Shown: piece by piece, positions 11,309 through 23,599 of the stretch | Position numbering within the stretch: the stretch's first letter is position 1 | Layout of the letters: the number at the start of each line of letters is the position of its first letter | Origin: Flexistipes sp. | GTDB taxonomy: Bacteria > Chrysiogenota > Deferribacteres > Deferribacterales > Flexistipitaceae | Direction of reading: 5' to 3' | Assembly (NCBI RefSeq): GCF_036172515.1 | Contig: NZ_JAXKVW010000024.1 | Span: forward strand, 1-23,599 | DNA length: 23,599 nt | Made by a program: the position numbers and the translations under genes | Notes under the pieces: model-generated | What the model was told of the DNA's origin: nothing | Databases searched by the model: none | The model's input: the letters and a program-made list of their open reading frames with translations, nothing else

Positions 11309-11377
11309 TATTAAATTATATGAATATTAAGTTTTTATATTGAAAAAATGCAGCTATAAGTTATTATTGATGTAAAT

Positions 11378-11538
11378 TCAGTTTCGCACTTCGCTGTGTC
11401 ATTGCGAAACTGAGCACTTAAGAATTTAAGTGCTCGCTTGTGGCAATCTCAAAATAATAATAAACGAGAGATTGCTTCGTCTACGCCCACGGGCGTACCC
11501 TCGCAAAGACTTGCAATAGGTACATGTGCGAAACTTGA
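11378..11538 (-). mobile_element. MITE-like element, copy A (inverted relative to copies B and C)
   Basis: Terminal inverted repeats TCA-GTTTCGCAC (left) and GTGCGAAACTTGA (right). The reverse complement shares blocks GTCTTTGCGAGG, GACGAAGCAATCTCTC and TTGAGATTGCCACAAGC with copy B. Internal perfect hairpins: GAGCACTTAA-gaat-TTAAGTGCTC, GCAATCTC/GAGATTGC and TACGCC-cacg-GGCGTA. Fills the whole der-tlpA intergenic gap. No flanking direct repeat was detected. Confidence 0.6.
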
Positions 11539-11576
11539 AGAAGTGAATTGATATCTGATGATTTTGGAGGAAATTT

Positions 11577-13738: not shown

Positions 13739-13748
13739 TAAGTGTAAT

Positions 13749-13929
13749 TCAAGTTTCGCACTTACACTGTTTTCGCGTCTTTGCGAGGAGTGAAAACGAC
13801 GAAGCAATCTCTCTACTTTTCTTGTTTTGAGATTGCCACAAGCCTGTTTCCACATGATTTCGCAAGGATGCCTATGGCATATATATTCGGTAGAAGCGAA
13901 TGCTAGACAAAACGAAGTGCGAAACTTGA
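13749..13929 (+). mobile_element. MITE-like element, copy B (reference orientation)
   Basis: TIRs TCAAGTTTCGCACTT (13749-) and AAGTGCGAAACTTGA (-13929), matching 15/15 as reverse complements. 8-bp flanks AGTGTAAT / TGTGTAAG match 6/8. Occupies the whole cytochrome-TPR intergenic gap. Confidence 0.6.
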
Positions 13930-13978
13930 TGTGTAAGTGGATAAATGCGTTAATTTAATATTAAAAAAGGAGCTGAAT

Positions 13979-14929: not shown

Positions 14930-15060
14930 TATATCTACTGCTGCCTTTGCGGCCGGAAGCGAACTGCATATTTATTTTCCCCGTAAAGGCAGTGTTGTTA
15001 ACAGCGACAGTATCTTTTAGTTATAGCTAAAAAAGTATCTAATTTAGAACTTCCAAGAAC

Positions 15061-15097
15061 AAGGCCTTTGAATCAGTGCCCCATATTCAAAGGCCTT
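15061..15097. repeat. perfect 13-bp inverted repeat (hairpin/cruciform) AAGGCCTTTGAAT-n11-ATTCAAAGGCCTT
   Basis: Seen directly. The stem is exactly complementary with an 11-nt loop CAGTGCCCCAT. Neither strand has a U-tract after it, so it is not an obvious intrinsic terminator. Lies 130 nt after the TPR gene stop. Confidence 0.5.
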
Positions 15098-15589
15098 AAA
15101 ACTATTGGAGTCTAGGTACTTATGAAAATCAGGCTATGCCATTTCGTATTAGTGTCTTACACATTTCAGTGAAATCTCATCATGGTGGGAAAATCTATTC
15201 TCATCCAGCAGTGTGAATTTTACAAAGCGGGTTCTGTCCACAAAGAGCATTTTTGTGGTGCCGCTGTCAAGGCTGGTCAGCCAGAAGAAATAAAGCTTCA
15301 GATTATCTGTATAATTGTAGGTGCTGCAGCCTACAATTTTATAATTTTCACTGCATATCATAATAAACACCATAAATAAGTACTTATTTATTATATAAAA
15401 AAATAAAAATTTTGTAAGCGAAAATTTGATATTGGCTTAACTGAGAGTTTTGAAAAATTCTGGAAGCAGGGCTTCAGCCTGCAATGTTTATCTTGAAACC
15501 CAGTGTTGTAAAGAGGCGGGACTATCCGAGCACTTAAGTTTTAAGTGCTCGGCCGAAAACTTCGAAAAACACATTATTCAAACCTATTA

Positions 15590-15714
15590 ACCTTGAACTT
15601 TGAACATTGAACTAACCTCACTCTCACATTCACACTCACTTTGCACTTGGTCCTTGGAACTTACCACTTACCACGTAGTACTTAGTACTTATCACTTAGC
15701 ACTAACTACCTCTC
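15590..15714. repeat. array of ~18 degenerate 6-7-nt tandem units (ACNTTGA / ACTCTC / ACTTNNN)
   Basis: Seen directly. Units read ACCTTGA ACTTTGA ACATTGA … ACTCTC ACATTC ACACTC ACTTTGC ACTTGGT CCTTGGA ACTTACC ACTTACC ACGTAGT ACTTAGT ACTTATC ACTTAGC ACTAACT ACCTCTC. The period is not a multiple of 3 and there is no ORF, so it is non-coding. Lies in the 3' flank of trmI. Confidence 0.6.
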
Positions 15715-15781
15715 TATTTGACATAGCTCTTAAAAAAATGGGAGGACACCAAAAACATTGAAGATAATATTCATTTAAAAG

Positions 15782-16741: not shown

Positions 16742-18643
16742 ATGAATAAACTGCAATCGTACGATAATATATTTCAGCTATTTATCAATACCTGGAGACA
16801 ATATCCCGATAAAACCGCTTTTGTCTATAGGGTCAATGGGGTTGAATTCGACGTAACCTATAATAAGCTTTTTGAAGATGTGCTTCTGCTCGCAAACGCT
16901 TTCATGGAAAAAAAGGTTACAAAAAACTCAAAAGTGGCTATTATTTCGGATAACCGGTACAGCTGGATTGTTACCGATCTGGCTCTGGTTGCAATAGGTG
17001 CTGTGAGTGTCCCCAGGGGCAGTGATACACCCGTGGACGAATTTGAGTTCATTATCAATCATTCAGAAAGTGATTTTATTGTTTTTGAGACCCCGGGCTT
17101 AATGAAATACACCCTGAGTGATTCCATTGCAAAAAAGATGAAAAACATTTTTGTGATGGAGGGCAATAGTGAACACCGTTTTTTTAATAAAATATATGCC
17201 TACAATGAAATCATTAAGAAAGACAGAGAAATAACTTATAATGAGATTGAAGAGTTTATTTCTCTTGCGGATAAACATAAGATAGATGACCCGTTTACCC
17301 TGATATACACATCAGGAACCACCGGCACTCCGAAAGGTGTGTTACTTTCAAACCGGAATTTTCTTGCAAATCTCAGCAGAATTCCGGATATGGTGGATTT
17401 GTCTCCTGATGATGTTTGGCTCTCAATTCTTCCGTCCTGGCATATATTCGAACGGTTGGCAGAACATTTGTCCGTTATGCAGGGGTGCACTACCGTATAT
17501 TCCAATATAAAGACTTTTTCCGATGATTTAAAAAAATACTCCCCTACAATTGTTGCCACAGTTCCCAGGTTGTGGGAGGCTTTGTACACAAAGGTTAATG
17601 CAACGCTAAAGAAAGAAAGTGAGAAAAAAGCCAAAATTTTTAATTTGCTGGTAAACGCTTCGGCAGCTTACAGAAGAAATAAAAGATTACTTAAAAACAA
17701 TCTTCCCGTGTTTGAGAAGAAGGGTTTTTTTGAAAATATATTTTCCAAGGGGCTGGCTTTTGTTAAAGTGGTTCTTTTGAAGCCGGTGGAAATGTACGTC
17801 GGGAAAAAGTTTGTCATTTTAAGGGAAAAGTTCGGCGGCAGACTCAGGCTTGCAGTGAGCGGGGGCGGAAGCTTGCCTCAGTTTGTTGATGAGTGGATAG
17901 ATGCTATAGGCATAAGGATTGTGAATGCTTACGGAATGACCGAATGCGCACCCGGAATCGCCGGAAGAGACCTACATTGTGAAGTTTTTGGCACTTTGGG
18001 ACCTCCCATAAAAGATACTGAAATCAGAATAGTTGATGAGGATGGTAATATACTGCCGGCGGGAAAAGAAGGTGAAATACAGGTTAAAGGCGAACAGGTT
18101 TTCAGCGGTTATTACAAAAATGAAGAGGAAAACCAAAAATCATTTACTAAGGATGGTTTTTTCAAAACAGGTGATTTGGGCAAATTTACTTTGACAGGTG
18201 AGCTGGTAATTACGGGACGTGCAAAGGAGATAATAGTTCTTGCTAATGGAGAAAATATCGATCCTACCAAAATAGAATCCACGATTTCCATGTTCCCCTT
18301 TGTCAAGGATGCTGTTCTTGTTGGCCAGGACAAAAAAGGATTGGGAGCCTTGATTGTCCCGGATTTTGAACAGATGAAAGATTACATATCTAAAAAATAC
18401 GATAAACTTGTTCACTCTAAGGAAGATGTTACAAAAGACAGTCATATTGCAGAGAAAATAAGGAAGGATATAAATAAATTTCTGTCTTCAAAAAAAGGTT
18501 TCAGGGATTATGAAAAATTACACAAAATCTCTTTTCTGGACAAGGAGTTTAAGTTGGGTGAAGAGCTCACCAATACCCTGAAAAAGAAAAGACACTACAT
18601 TGAAAAAAAGTACAGAGACATAATAAACAGACTTTTTAAATAA
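16742..18643 (+). CDS. long-chain-fatty-acid--CoA ligase (AMP-forming acyl-CoA synthetase, ACSL-like)
   Basis: 633 aa; AMP-binding signature YTSGTTGTPKGV, GYGMTE-like AYGMTEC, TGD..G hinge (FKTGDLG). Confidence 0.85.
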   Translation: MNKLQSYDNIFQLFINTWRQYPDKTAFVYRVNGVEFDVTYNKLFEDVLLLANAFMEKKVTKNSKVAIISDNRYSWIVTDLALVAIGAVSVPRGSDTPVDEFEFIINHSESDFIVFETPGLMKYTLSDSIAKKMKNIFVMEGNSEHRFFNKIYAYNEIIKKDREITYNEIEEFISLADKHKIDDPFTLIYTSGTTGTPKGVLLSNRNFLANLSRIPDMVDLSPDDVWLSILPSWHIFERLAEHLSVMQGCTTVYSNIKTFSDDLKKYSPTIVATVPRLWEALYTKVNATLKKESEKKAKIFNLLVNASAAYRRNKRLLKNNLPVFEKKGFFENIFSKGLAFVKVVLLKPVEMYVGKKFVILREKFGGRLRLAVSGGGSLPQFVDEWIDAIGIRIVNAYGMTECAPGIAGRDLHCEVFGTLGPPIKDTEIRIVDEDGNILPAGKEGEIQVKGEQVFSGYYKNEEENQKSFTKDGFFKTGDLGKFTLTGELVITGRAKEIIVLANGENIDPTKIESTISMFPFVKDAVLVGQDKKGLGALIVPDFEQMKDYISKKYDKLVHSKEDVTKDSHIAEKIRKDINKFLSSKKGFRDYEKLHKISFLDKEFKLGEELTNTLKKKRHYIEKKYRDIINRLFK

Positions 18644-18647
18644 ATTT

Positions 18648-18779
18648 TCAAATTTCGCACTTAGTTCTGTTATTGTGAGCGTAGCGAAGCAATCTCTAAT
18701 ACAAGACATGAGATCGCCGCGGGTTTTTGCCCTCGCGATGACGCTGTCAGACGTTCATAGGTGCAAGTGCGAAACTTGA
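18648..18779 (+). mobile_element. MITE-like element, copy C, flanked by a perfect 8-bp direct repeat ATAAATTT
   Basis: TIRs TCAAATTTCGCACTT / AAGTGCGAAACTTGA. Shares internal GCGAAGCAATCTCT with copy B. ATAAATTT at 18640-18647 (includes the acyl-CoA ligase stop TAA) is repeated exactly at 18780-18787, consistent with a target-site duplication. Confidence 0.65.
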
Positions 18780-18805
18780 ATAAATTTTTTTCCGGAGGCA
18801 GATCT

Positions 18806-19834
18806 ATGAAAGCTATGGTTCTGGAAAGAATTACAGATTTAAAACAAGAATCTAAACCTTTGGTATTAAGAGACCGTCCAGTCCCCGAAATCCAAAACAG
18901 TGAGGTATTAATAAAGGTAAAAGCCTGTGGAGTTTGTCATACAGAGCTTGACGAGATTGAAGGGCGTACCCCTCCTCCCCGGCTGCCTGTTGTCCCGGGG
19001 CATGAAATTGTGGGTGAGGTTGTGGGAATATCAGACGGTGCCACAAAATTCAAAGAAGGTGACAGAGTAGGAGTTGGCTGGATTTATTCCGCTTGTGGTG
19101 ATTGCTATTTCTGTGATAACGGACTGGAAAACTTATGCAGCGATTTTAAGGCCACCGGCAGGGATGCAGATGGTGGATATGGCGAATATATGAAAGTCAG
19201 TGAGCATTTTGCTGTAAAAATACCTGATGTGTATGAAGATTCCCAGGCTGCACCTTTGCTTTGTGCTGGAGCTGTGGGTTACCGCTCATTAAAGCTTGCC
19301 CGAATGGAAAATGGGCAAAATCTTGGTTTTATGGGATTTGGGGCATCCGCACATCTGGTTCTTCAGCTTGCCAAATATTTGTATCCTGAATCCCGTTTTT
19401 TTGTTTTTGCAAGAAGTGAATCCCAGCGGGAATTTGCCAAAAAGCTTGGTGCTTTTTGGACAGGAGATATAGAGGATTCCCCGCCGGAGAAGTGTCTGAG
19501 CATCATTGACACTACTCCGGTGTACAAAACTGTATTGGCGGGTCTTTTTAATATTTCTCCTTCGGGACGTTTAGTGGTTAATGCCATTAGTAAAGAAGAG
19601 TTTGACAAAGATATCTTGATGAATCTTGATTACAAAAATCACCTTTGGATGGAAAAAGAGTTGAAAAGTGTGGCAAATGTTACACCTGCTGATCTTCAGG
19701 ATTTTATCAAAATTGCTGCAAAAGCAGGGATTTTTCCCACTGTGGAAGAATATCCCCTGGAAGAAGCCAACAAAGCACTGATTGGGATAAAGAATGGAAG
19801 CAGTGTCGGAGCCAAAGTGCTCAGATTGGCATAA
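18806..19834 (+). CDS. zinc-dependent alcohol dehydrogenase (MDR superfamily)
   Basis: ATG 18806 with GGAGG SD; the track ORF from 18761 lies inside MITE copy C. Catalytic Zn motif GHEIVGEV, structural-Zn Cys cluster CGDCYFCDNGLENLC, Rossmann GFGASAH. Confidence 0.85.
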   Translation: MKAMVLERITDLKQESKPLVLRDRPVPEIQNSEVLIKVKACGVCHTELDEIEGRTPPPRLPVVPGHEIVGEVVGISDGATKFKEGDRVGVGWIYSACGDCYFCDNGLENLCSDFKATGRDADGGYGEYMKVSEHFAVKIPDVYEDSQAAPLLCAGAVGYRSLKLARMENGQNLGFMGFGASAHLVLQLAKYLYPESRFFVFARSESQREFAKKLGAFWTGDIEDSPPEKCLSIIDTTPVYKTVLAGLFNISPSGRLVVNAISKEEFDKDILMNLDYKNHLWMEKELKSVANVTPADLQDFIKIAAKAGIFPTVEEYPLEEANKALIGIKNGSSVGAKVLRLA

Positions 19835-19855
19835 AGAAGGCATTAAGCCTTCTTT
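19833..19855. terminator. hairpin between convergent adh and encapsulin genes (candidate bidirectional terminator)
   Basis: AAAGAAGGC-attaa-GCCTTCTTT, a 9-bp stem overlapping the adh stop codon. T-rich on the + side (TTTATGCTTATTT); weaker tail on the minus side. Confidence 0.4.
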
Positions 19856-19859
19856 ATGC

Positions 19860-20651
19860 TTATTTGATTACAATGAGTGCGGCAGGATCAAGTATTCTGA
19901 AGGTGAAAGATTCTGTAAAATAAAGGGTAACCTCTTTACTGTCGTGCTGCAGATATCCTATGGATAAATCCTGTCCCAGTGTAAGTCTGAAATCGCCGCC
20001 TCTTTCAGATACCAAATAGGCTTCTGAAATATTGCTGCTTACCTTTACAGATCCTCCGATAATATCTTCAATCTGTTTCTTCAATGGGTATCCTTTATTT
20101 AATCCGACAATATTTTTCATCTGATCAACGGAAACAACGAGTGAATAGGGGCCGTCAACGGAAGCACTTTTCAGTTTGGCAACAGCTTCCGCTGTTACAT
20201 AAGGGAGGTCTTCGGTCTTGGTTGGCAGTTTTAAAGAACTATGTTCACTTGAGTCTTTCAGCCCTTTAATATTTGCTTTTTCAAGACCGTAATATACAGA
20301 TTTGTCTTCGAAGACAGCTATCTTTTTTGCCGCATCTTCAAGGGAAGAAAGGTCAATATCTTCAGCCCCTCTTAATACGCTGTCCAACTCCCACAATTTG
20401 AGTTTAAACGGGACTCTGGCTTCGACTAGCGGCTGTACTTTGGGGATACCATATTCAACAGCTGAGCCTTTATCCGTTACAATTTCCAGCCTTCCTGTCT
20501 TTACAGATTCTGTATCAATTCCCAACGGTCCTTCAACATCCACAAATTTTCTGACACTTAGGTGTGAGGAAAGGGTTCTGTTTGCCTGAAGATTTATTTC
20601 TTCCCACGCTTTATCCGGGATGGGTGCCAGATTTTGTCTTAATATATTCAT
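19860..20651 (-). CDS. encapsulin nanocompartment shell protein (family 1, HK97 fold)
   Basis: 263 aa. The N-terminus MNILRQNLAPIPDKAWEEI…RKFVDVEGPLG…LWELD…DLSSLEDAAKKIAVFED closely tracks the Thermotoga-type family-1 encapsulin sequence as I remember it. Confidence 0.85.
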   Translation of the reverse strand: MNILRQNLAPIPDKAWEEINLQANRTLSSHLSVRKFVDVEGPLGIDTESVKTGRLEIVTDKGSAVEYGIPKVQPLVEARVPFKLKLWELDSVLRGAEDIDLSSLEDAAKKIAVFEDKSVYYGLEKANIKGLKDSSEHSSLKLPTKTEDLPYVTAEAVAKLKSASVDGPYSLVVSVDQMKNIVGLNKGYPLKKQIEDIIGGSVKVSSNISEAYLVSERGGDFRLTLGQDLSIGYLQHDSKEVTLYFTESFTFRILDPAALIVIK

Positions 20652-20663
20652 TATTTACCCCCT

Positions 20664-21011
20664 TTATTTATTAAGTTTGCCTATATTCAGACTTTTGTTA
20701 TCACTGTCCTGGGATTCTGCCTCGCCTTCTTCCAAATGGGCAATATTTCCTTCGGTAAACAGATATGTTCTCAGTTCATTGTCCCATGCAGGCATATTAC
20801 GTCTCAGCCATTCCAGTGCCATACACGCATGCTCGATTTCTTCATCCCTGTTATGTGCCAATATCTCCTTTAAGTTTTCATCATCTGTTGCATCGACTCT
20901 CTGCTGGTACCAGTCGATTGCTTCAATCTCCTCTTTGAGACTGTTTAATGCGCGGGTAAAATTCTTGGTCTCTTCACTTAATTTTTCTTCGGGCTCATGG
21001 TATTGTGACAT
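20664..21011 (-). CDS. encapsulated ferritin-like cargo protein (EncFtn/Flp) with C-terminal targeting peptide
   Basis: 115 aa. Motif LKEILAHNRDEEIEHACMALEWLRRNMPAWDNELRTYLFT is typical of EncFtn. C-terminal SLNIGKLNK fits the SLxIGxLK cargo-loading peptide. AGGAGG SD at 6 nt; stop lies 13 nt before the encapsulin start. Confidence 0.8.
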   Translation of the reverse strand: MSQYHEPEEKLSEETKNFTRALNSLKEEIEAIDWYQQRVDATDDENLKEILAHNRDEEIEHACMALEWLRRNMPAWDNELRTYLFTEGNIAHLEEGEAESQDSDNKSLNIGKLNK

Positions 21012-23526: not shown

Positions 23527-23599
23527 TGGATGGAGAGTTTGATCCTGGCTCAGAACGAACGCTGGCGGCGTGCTTAACACATGCAAGTCAGGGGGAATC
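23527..23599 (+). rRNA. 16S rRNA gene, 5' end (continues beyond window)
   Basis: Universal AGAGTTTGATCCTGGCTCAG at 23534-23553, followed by GAACGAACGCTGGCGGCGTGCTTAACACATGCAAGTC. The mature 5' end is estimated a few nt upstream of the primer site. Confidence 0.9.

Follow-up and report, generated by a model that had tools for sequence, protein, structure and literature searches.

The DNA analysed in this study, referred to throughout as the window (23,599 nt), comes from a contig of Flexistipes sp. and carries three copies, A, B and C, of a short repeated element. These copies were defined with a 16-mer terminal repeat, which at up to three mismatches is found seven times in the window where 0.5 would be expected. 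Copy C lies between a fadD-like acyl-CoA ligase gene and the alcohol dehydrogenase gene adh, two genes that are probably co-transcribed (Table 1). It is non-coding and near-palindromic over its whole length, and as RNA it folds with -47.1 kcal/mol (z -3.35). The three copies are between 134 and 183 bp long, and none of them has an internal ORF of note in the ORF list.

Table 1. Position of the element copies, their repeats and the genes flanking copy C in the window.
Feature	Position	Strand	Remarks
MITE copy A, 164 bp	11376..11539	.	left end degenerate; ends placed by aligning it with sister copies
MITE copy B, 183 bp	13748..13930	.	perfect 6-bp duplication GTGTAA at 13742-13747 and 13931-13936
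Upstream gene, AMP-binding acyl-CoA ligase (fadD-like), 633 aa	16742..18643	+	ORF; stop TAA 18641-18643
Putative left target-site duplication TAAATT, copy C	18641..18646	+	register consistent with the family; begins with the fadD TAA stop
MITE copy C, 134 bp	18647..18780	.	length includes the terminal T and A; paired-terminal-repeat match; absent from relatives other than L002
Left terminal inverted repeat, copy C	18647..18662	+	TTCAAATTTCGCACTT; 1 mismatch to consensus
Right terminal inverted repeat, copy C	18765..18780	+	AAGTGCGAAACTTGAA; 0 mismatches
Putative right target-site duplication TAAATT, copy C	18781..18786	+	register consistent with the family
Downstream gene, zinc-dependent alcohol dehydrogenase (adh)	18794..19834	+	SD GGAGG 18794-18798; ATG 18806

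An earlier note on this DNA had described a perfect 8-bp direct repeat bracketing copy C, and this repeat, ATAAATTT, is indeed found at 18640-18647 and again at 18780-18787. Its first occurrence includes the TAA stop codon of the acyl-CoA ligase gene, as had been pointed out, and its second lies 19 nt upstream of the adh start codon. The maximal direct repeat is longer, at 10 bp (AATAAATTTT, 18639-18648 and 18779-18788, the period being 140 bp), and it reaches into the 16-nt terminal inverted repeats at their outer ends. As the last base of each terminal repeat falls within this overlap, the limit between element and duplication can be placed in more than one way when copy C is taken alone; its invariant core, TCAAAT...CTTGA, occupies 18648-18779 (132 bp), and the block between the repeats measures 132-134 bp. 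Over the whole window, the rate at which an 8-mer is found again at any one offset between 100 and 250 bp is 5.2e-5 per position, and at an offset of 140 bp there are three such recurrences in 23,449 positions, all of which are registers of the copy C repeat. The repeat is unlikely to have arisen by chance and is not a product of AT-richness.

The fadD-adh junction of related strains, where the earlier note had suggested looking for an empty site, was compared with the window using contigs that carry close homologues of adh (97% and 85-88% identity). In L002, which is 96% identical at the DNA level, the fadD-adh spacer is 162 nt long, as in the window, and holds the same element with around 10 substitutions and a right repeat that has decayed to ATAATTTT. 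Among the relatives compared, this lineage is the only one to share insertion C. In L003-L006 (88%), L007 (87%) and L008-L011 (83.5% DNA identity) the spacer is 22 nt, and these real empty sites read CTTTTTAAATAAATTTTCTTCCGGAGGCAGATTTATG, with exactly one copy of the repeat each. The empty site reconstructed previously, by removing the element and one repeat, had precisely this length, and its sequence was almost correct, differing by one or two substitutions from the real sites. A blastn alignment of the window to L003 is broken at 18649/18776, and 14 nt of L003 are covered by both of its pieces, as is predicted by a duplication. One insertion in the ancestor of the window and L002 explains this pattern, for which the alternative needs three or four independent and precise deletions. 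An empty site was also found for copy B in L168, whose cytochrome is 92% identical, and which has GGTGTAATTTTTT with a single GTGTAA; at the equivalent site the window reads AGTGTAA, then copy B, then GTGTAAGTGG, with the distance to the downstream start codon otherwise unchanged. The net gain relative to the empty site is the same for copies B and C, being the invariant core (TCAAG...CTTGA) plus 8 bp.

Copies A-C are a small non-coding mobile element, a MITE, present by insertion and not as an ancestral RNA. They are short (<~300 bp), contain no transposase gene and share terminal inverted repeats; target duplications are found in the family, and copies B and C have a precise empty site. The insertion with target-site duplication that had been proposed is borne out by the empty sites of the relatives, and, since the element is non-coding, so is its mobilisation in trans. 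It could be argued instead that, in AT-rich DNA, the flanking repeat matches by chance, and that the 134-bp palindrome was already present in the ancestor as a structured element, such as a regulatory RNA or a terminator, and was lost in the relatives, and both the AT-rich flanks and the strong RNA fold (-47 kcal/mol) would agree with this. Against it, however, stand the empty sites at 88%, 87% and 83.5% identity, with one repeat and the exact length predicted, the comparable site of copy B, the chance rate of 5e-5, and the occurrence of identical termini around unrelated interiors in other phyla. In addition, an Rfam search of the whole window and of the element alone, at the gathering threshold and at E <= 1, gave no match except the start of a 16S in the window, and a scan for promoter and intrinsic-terminator consensus around copy C found neither. 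The earlier argument against an ancestral regulatory RNA holds, given the absence of the element from three or four sister lineages and the lack of an Rfam match, and we regard this explanation as effectively refuted, with a negligible probability. Palindromes of the REP/BIME type or derived from IS200/IS605, which make no target duplication and have a hairpin that is recognised as single-stranded DNA, do not fit either, as duplications are the rule here.

The other two copies in the window differ in how well their flanks are preserved. The 8-bp flanks of copy B, AGTGTAAT (13741-13748) and TGTGTAAG (13930-13937), match at six of eight positions, in agreement with the earlier count. Both mismatches are at the outer ends of the 8-mers, the pattern expected of a 6-bp duplication plus terminal bases, and the most consistent reading of copy B would be a 6-bp duplication, GTGTAA. 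One contig, L001, ends inside copy B. The view that copy A has no flanking repeat needs revision, in that, with its ends set by the alignment, the sequences on either side, GATGTAA (11369-11375) and GAAGTGA (11540-11546), match at five of seven positions (~3% by chance), and these are a candidate for a decayed 7-bp duplication. Over its full length copy A is ~81% identical to the metagenome copies L158 and L151.

Members of the family outside the window were searched for with the pattern TCAARTTTCGCAC...GTGCGAAAYTTGA, in one representative genome per species and then in JGI metagenomes, leaving the outermost base free to avoid bias. The 63 loci obtained, together with the window and L002, gave 66 paired copies and 51 independent insertions. 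The terminal signature N-TCAAGTTTCGCAC is found in these 51 insertions, from Desulfobacterales MAGs, Myroides, metagenomes and the Flexistipes type, with copies outside the window measuring 128-181 bp. Two classes of terminus can be told apart. Members of class 1 ('...CACC') come from Desulfobacterales MAGs, from Myroides pelagicus and from many metagenome contigs. In all of them TCAAG is preceded by C and CTTGA is followed by G, such that the class 1 terminus is CTCAAGTTTCGCAC. Class 2 ('...CACTT') is the Flexistipes type, found in several metagenomes that also gave Flexistipes-like contigs, and its outer base is variable, mostly T/A or G/C with some non-complementary pairs. The interiors are unrelated between lineages while the termini are identical across phyla. 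The same termini around unrelated interiors are the usual sign of MITE families with one common transposase.

The lengths of the duplications were tabulated over these 51 insertions, as the earlier note had advised for the copies genome-wide. In the family register, meaning one terminal base and then the duplication, a perfect 7-bp duplication is found in 19 of the 51, where 0.14 would be expected by chance, and a further six match at 6/7. Perfect 6-bp duplications number eight, including those of copies B and C in the window (chance expectation 0.27), with two more insertions matching at 5/6. Only L019 has a perfect 8-bp duplication (chance expectation 0.0), one insertion matches at 7/8, and 14 have no detectable duplication. 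A duplication is retained in 35 of the 51 insertions, against ~0.1-0.3 by chance, with a modal length of 7 bp (25 of the 35 informative) and a range of 6-8 bp. An 8-bp length is not supported for the family. A chance 8-mer match from AT-richness, which had been raised as a possible refutation, is ruled against by the rate per position given above.

The earlier note had taken the 8-bp repeat to indicate a transposase of a family that makes duplications of this length. Under this reading ATAAATTT is a true 8-bp duplication, the element ends exactly in TCAA...TTGA, and the transposase belongs to an 8-bp family of the ISL3, IS6, IS66, IS1595 or IS256 type. The agreement at 8/8 for copy C and at 6/8 for copy B in that register is in its favour, as is the net gain of the core plus 8 bp for both copies relative to real empty sites. 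Across the family, however, a perfect 8-bp repeat abutting TCAAG/CTTGA is found in one of the 51 independent insertions, copy C itself (chance expectation 0.0), and the dominant state is the core plus 9, made up of 7 bp and two terminal bases. Copy B mismatches at both outer positions, and so do L015, L022 and L140 when read as 8-mers (6/8), copies in which the outer bases are the fixed C and G of the terminal repeat. To our knowledge, the ends of the 8-bp families (ISL3, IS6, IS66, IS1595 and IS256) are unlike this end signature. A duplication of 8 bp made by such a family is considered very improbable, and the 6-8 bp range with its mode at 7 bp describes the family better.

Within this range the stagger is genuinely variable, because unambiguous 6-bp duplications also occur in class 1 (L015, L022, L140 and L146), where the termini are fixed as C and G. 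Amongst Flexistipes-type copies, 6-bp duplications make up ~40%. For copy C, the most consistent reading is probably a 6-bp duplication, TAAATT, although the 140-bp gain is compatible with any length between 6 and 10 bp, depending on where the element ends. The empty sites show an A before TAAATT and a T after it, and the match at 8/8 (and at 10/10) arises because the terminal T and A of the element happen to equal these neighbouring target bases. Taken alone, copy C could alternatively be read as a 7-bp duplication next to an element that lacks one terminal base, or as a genuine duplication of 8 bp. The possibilities that the variable outer base is a carried donor flank, or the edge of a 9-bp duplication, were also considered and rejected, as the flanks agree with neither register. 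In the 19 perfect 7-bp duplications A+T makes up 90% and the symmetrised consensus is T-T-A-N-T-A-A, and this preference for AT-rich targets accounts for the insertions next to TAA stops and in AT-rich spacers.

With regard to the source of the transposase, the best agreement was found with the ISPepr1 subgroup of the IS4 family, elements of 1500-1600 bp that have the ends YT-AA-YTT---A, a 5'-CT, direct repeats of 7-8 bp and a preference for AT-rich targets (De Palmenaer et al., 2008, PMC2266710). The class 1 terminus agrees with this end signature at eight of the eight specified positions, and in the 5'-CT too, whereas other IS4 subgroups in the same table fit at two or three positions at most. 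The target preference of ISPepr1 matches the A+T content of the duplications reported here. The modal length also falls within the 7-8 bp of ISPepr1, but the 6-bp duplications, window copies B and C included, do not. Further differences from ISPepr1 are that the first base of Flexistipes-type copies is often T, G or A instead of C, and that no transposase is present. On the evidence of these sequence features, the ISPepr1 subgroup is the most likely source of the transposase.

The main rival to ISPepr1 is that the MITE and the mechanism are the same but the transposase is from another lineage, either the IS1634 family or an unclassified IS group. IS1634 elements make AT-rich duplications of 5-6 bp and have poorly conserved ends of the form C-----YT (PMC2266710). 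The frequency of 6-bp duplications, both overall and in the Flexistipes type, with copies B and C of the window among them, would suit this family, its loose end consensus is satisfied, and its targeting of AT-rich tracts agrees. That there is no ISPepr1-type partner among the loci searched also speaks for IS1634 or some other lineage. On the other hand, the modal duplication of 7 bp lies outside the 5-6 bp range, the IS1634 consensus fixes only three positions where all eight were matched for ISPepr1, and its poorly conserved ends contrast with termini that are highly conserved, and identical across phyla, in these MITEs. We consider an origin of the transposase in IS1634 or an unclassified group to be unlikely.

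A search for an autonomous element with these termini was negative in the ~170 loci fetched, in viral contigs and among plasmid IS4/ISPepr1 relatives, and no fetched locus had a transposase between two terminal repeats at a distance of 1-2.5 kb. ISAsp3, an ISPepr1 member on plasmid pANA02 of Anabaena sp. 90 (PMC3542288), returned only close cyanobacterial homologues when used in a word-indexed protein search. ISPepr1-like relatives on plasmids, on viral contigs and near the Myroides MITE, the last an IS4-like element 1 kb away from it (L014, 1066-2432), have the termini (T)CAATAC(C/T)TTCG(C/G)..., and the relatedness of these termini to those of the MITEs speaks for the link to ISPepr1. ISAsp3 and these relatives share the TCAA...TTCG theme with the MITEs but have 2-3 extra bases between the blocks, and the relatives, the L014 element included, were rejected as the autonomous partner. 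Searching viral contigs with single terminal-repeat 15-mers gave 82 single hits, which is chance-like, with no inverted partner enclosing a transposase; the viral loci L029 and L086 were inspected as possible partners and contain ordinary phage genes. A viral scan with the subterminal signature common to several Desulfobacterales MITE subfamilies gave 0 hits.

Taken together, the best explanation, and one that we hold to be highly likely, is that a MITE inserted in the fadD-adh spacer with a 6-7 bp target duplication, moved in trans by a DDE transposase that is likely of the ISPepr1 type of IS4. The insertion took place in a recent Flexistipes ancestor, into a 22-nt spacer and at a target overlapping the fadD stop codon. 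A DDE transposase supplied in trans would bind the terminal signature (C/T)TCAAGTTTCGCAC, excise the element and join its 3' ends, at staggered positions, to a target that is rich in A+T and roughly a palindrome (~TTANTAA). The stagger would usually be 7 bp, and less often 6 or 8 bp, and repair of the gaps would then make the duplication. The end signature, the duplication length and the target preference, rather than a gene, point to an IS4-family transposase of the ISPepr1 subgroup as the most likely candidate. It is also conceivable, but quite improbable, that the 14-nt terminus (C/T)TCAAGTTTCGCAC, found in Deferribacterota, Desulfobacterota and Bacteroidota, marks an 'orphan' superfamily of MITEs that spans phyla. 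Its transposase would be an undescribed IS4-like lineage with an unusually flexible 6/7/8-bp strand-transfer stagger, tolerant of a variable terminal nucleotide, and would seldom or never occur in MITE-bearing genomes.

Bacterial MITEs described before include Correia, RUP, Nezha and Chunjie. The copies described here resemble bacterial MITEs in general, for example the MITE groups of Anabaena sp. 90 (PMC3542288), in being 100-200 bp long and non-coding, with terminal inverted repeats, a hairpin over the whole length and target duplications, and in having many copies that are mostly intergenic and polymorphic between strains. They differ in that one 14-nt terminus is common to families of Deferribacterota, Desulfobacterota and Bacteroidota whose interiors are unrelated. 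We found no publication that describes this terminal signature, a literature search with the sequence string returning only unrelated mouse papers, and no literature on Flexistipes MITEs was found either. This is a previously undescribed yet ordinary bacterial MITE family, with nothing conceptually new about it.

For the host, the insertion of copy C added 140 bp between fadD and adh, the 132-bp core plus 8 bp. The fadD stop codon was kept because the duplicated target includes the TAA, and the adh ribosome-binding site was displaced 140 bp downstream with its Shine-Dalgarno sequence and start codon intact. The occupied and empty sites of copy C illustrate cleanly how a MITE can insert at a stop codon and restore it in doing so. 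Two genes formerly spaced by 22 nt are now interrupted by a strongly folding sequence, and a hairpin of this strength between fadD and adh may alter the expression of adh. These MITEs also break short-read assemblies, as in the case of L001. The pooled flanks give the stagger and the target preference (TTANTAA) of the transposase we infer, and for annotation, these palindromes between genes, in Flexistipes as in many genomes of sulfate reducers, are mobile DNA and not regulatory RNAs.

The copies of this MITE family that are of the Flexistipes type, the class with termini ending in CACTT, share a modular interior when aligned (11392-11523, 13764-13914 and 18663-18764 in the window), with the order GTCATTGCGAAAC ... 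GGCAATCTC-(A-rich loop)-GAGATTGCTTCGTC ... CCTCGCAATGAC. Short self-complementary cassettes, which differ from copy to copy, are exchanged at two positions within this interior, as with GAGCACTTAAGAATTTAAGTGCTC vs CCTGTGGAAACAGGG. A minimal version at two further loci (see table) suggests that both termini are kept with only ~46 bp between them.

Some copies (L155 56-197; L129 4210-4341, the latter the same insertion as in loci L143 and L157) are bordered not by direct repeats but by sequences that form an inverted pair, as in CAAATGTTAGTAAC | ... | GTTACTAACATTTG. Such flanks suggest insertion at the centre of a palindrome, which was possibly another MITE or a hairpin.

In Myroides pelagicus (L014), a MITE with CTCAAGTTTCGCAC termini lies 1 kb from an IS4-like element, the transposase of which contains the motif YKSRW..E..FRDLK. 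The 18-nt termini of this element, AACCAATAGCGTCCTAAA, differ from those of the nearby MITE.

Features within the window and at the other loci compared.
Feature	Position	Strand	Remarks
Encapsulin shell protein (Linocin_M18)	19860-20651	-	
EncFtn-like cargo gene	20664-21011	-	after encapsulin gene
Imperfect inverted repeat, 38 nt	19804-19884		between adh and encapsulin gene ends
Bacterial 16S rRNA gene, first 73 nt	23527-23599		Rfam RF00177, 54.5 bits
Minimal MITE version, ~72 bp	L125 7973-8044; L138 5423-5494		two perfect termini, 59 bp start to start
IS4-like element	L014 1066-2432		Myroides pelagicus; transposase 346 aa
L001 start	L001 1-30 = window ~13901		within copy B

Downstream of copy C, the encapsulin and EncFtn-like genes (19860-21011) are convergent with adh, the alcohol dehydrogenase gene, and the inverted repeat between adh and the encapsulin gene is a plausible bidirectional terminator. 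The window ends within the start of a 16S rRNA gene.

Close relatives differ by rearrangement in the region adjoining copies A and B. When window 14930-15780 is compared with L002 1-1645, L003 1-2800 and L007 1-3200, the genes found upstream of the TrmI-like methyltransferase are not the same: the window has a TPR protein and a cytochrome there, whereas the relatives, even the 96%-identical lineage L002, have other genes. An independent short-read contig from the same strain (L001; Logan SRR26554467) has its first bases inside copy B, suggesting that the genome carries enough copies of the MITE to interrupt assembly.
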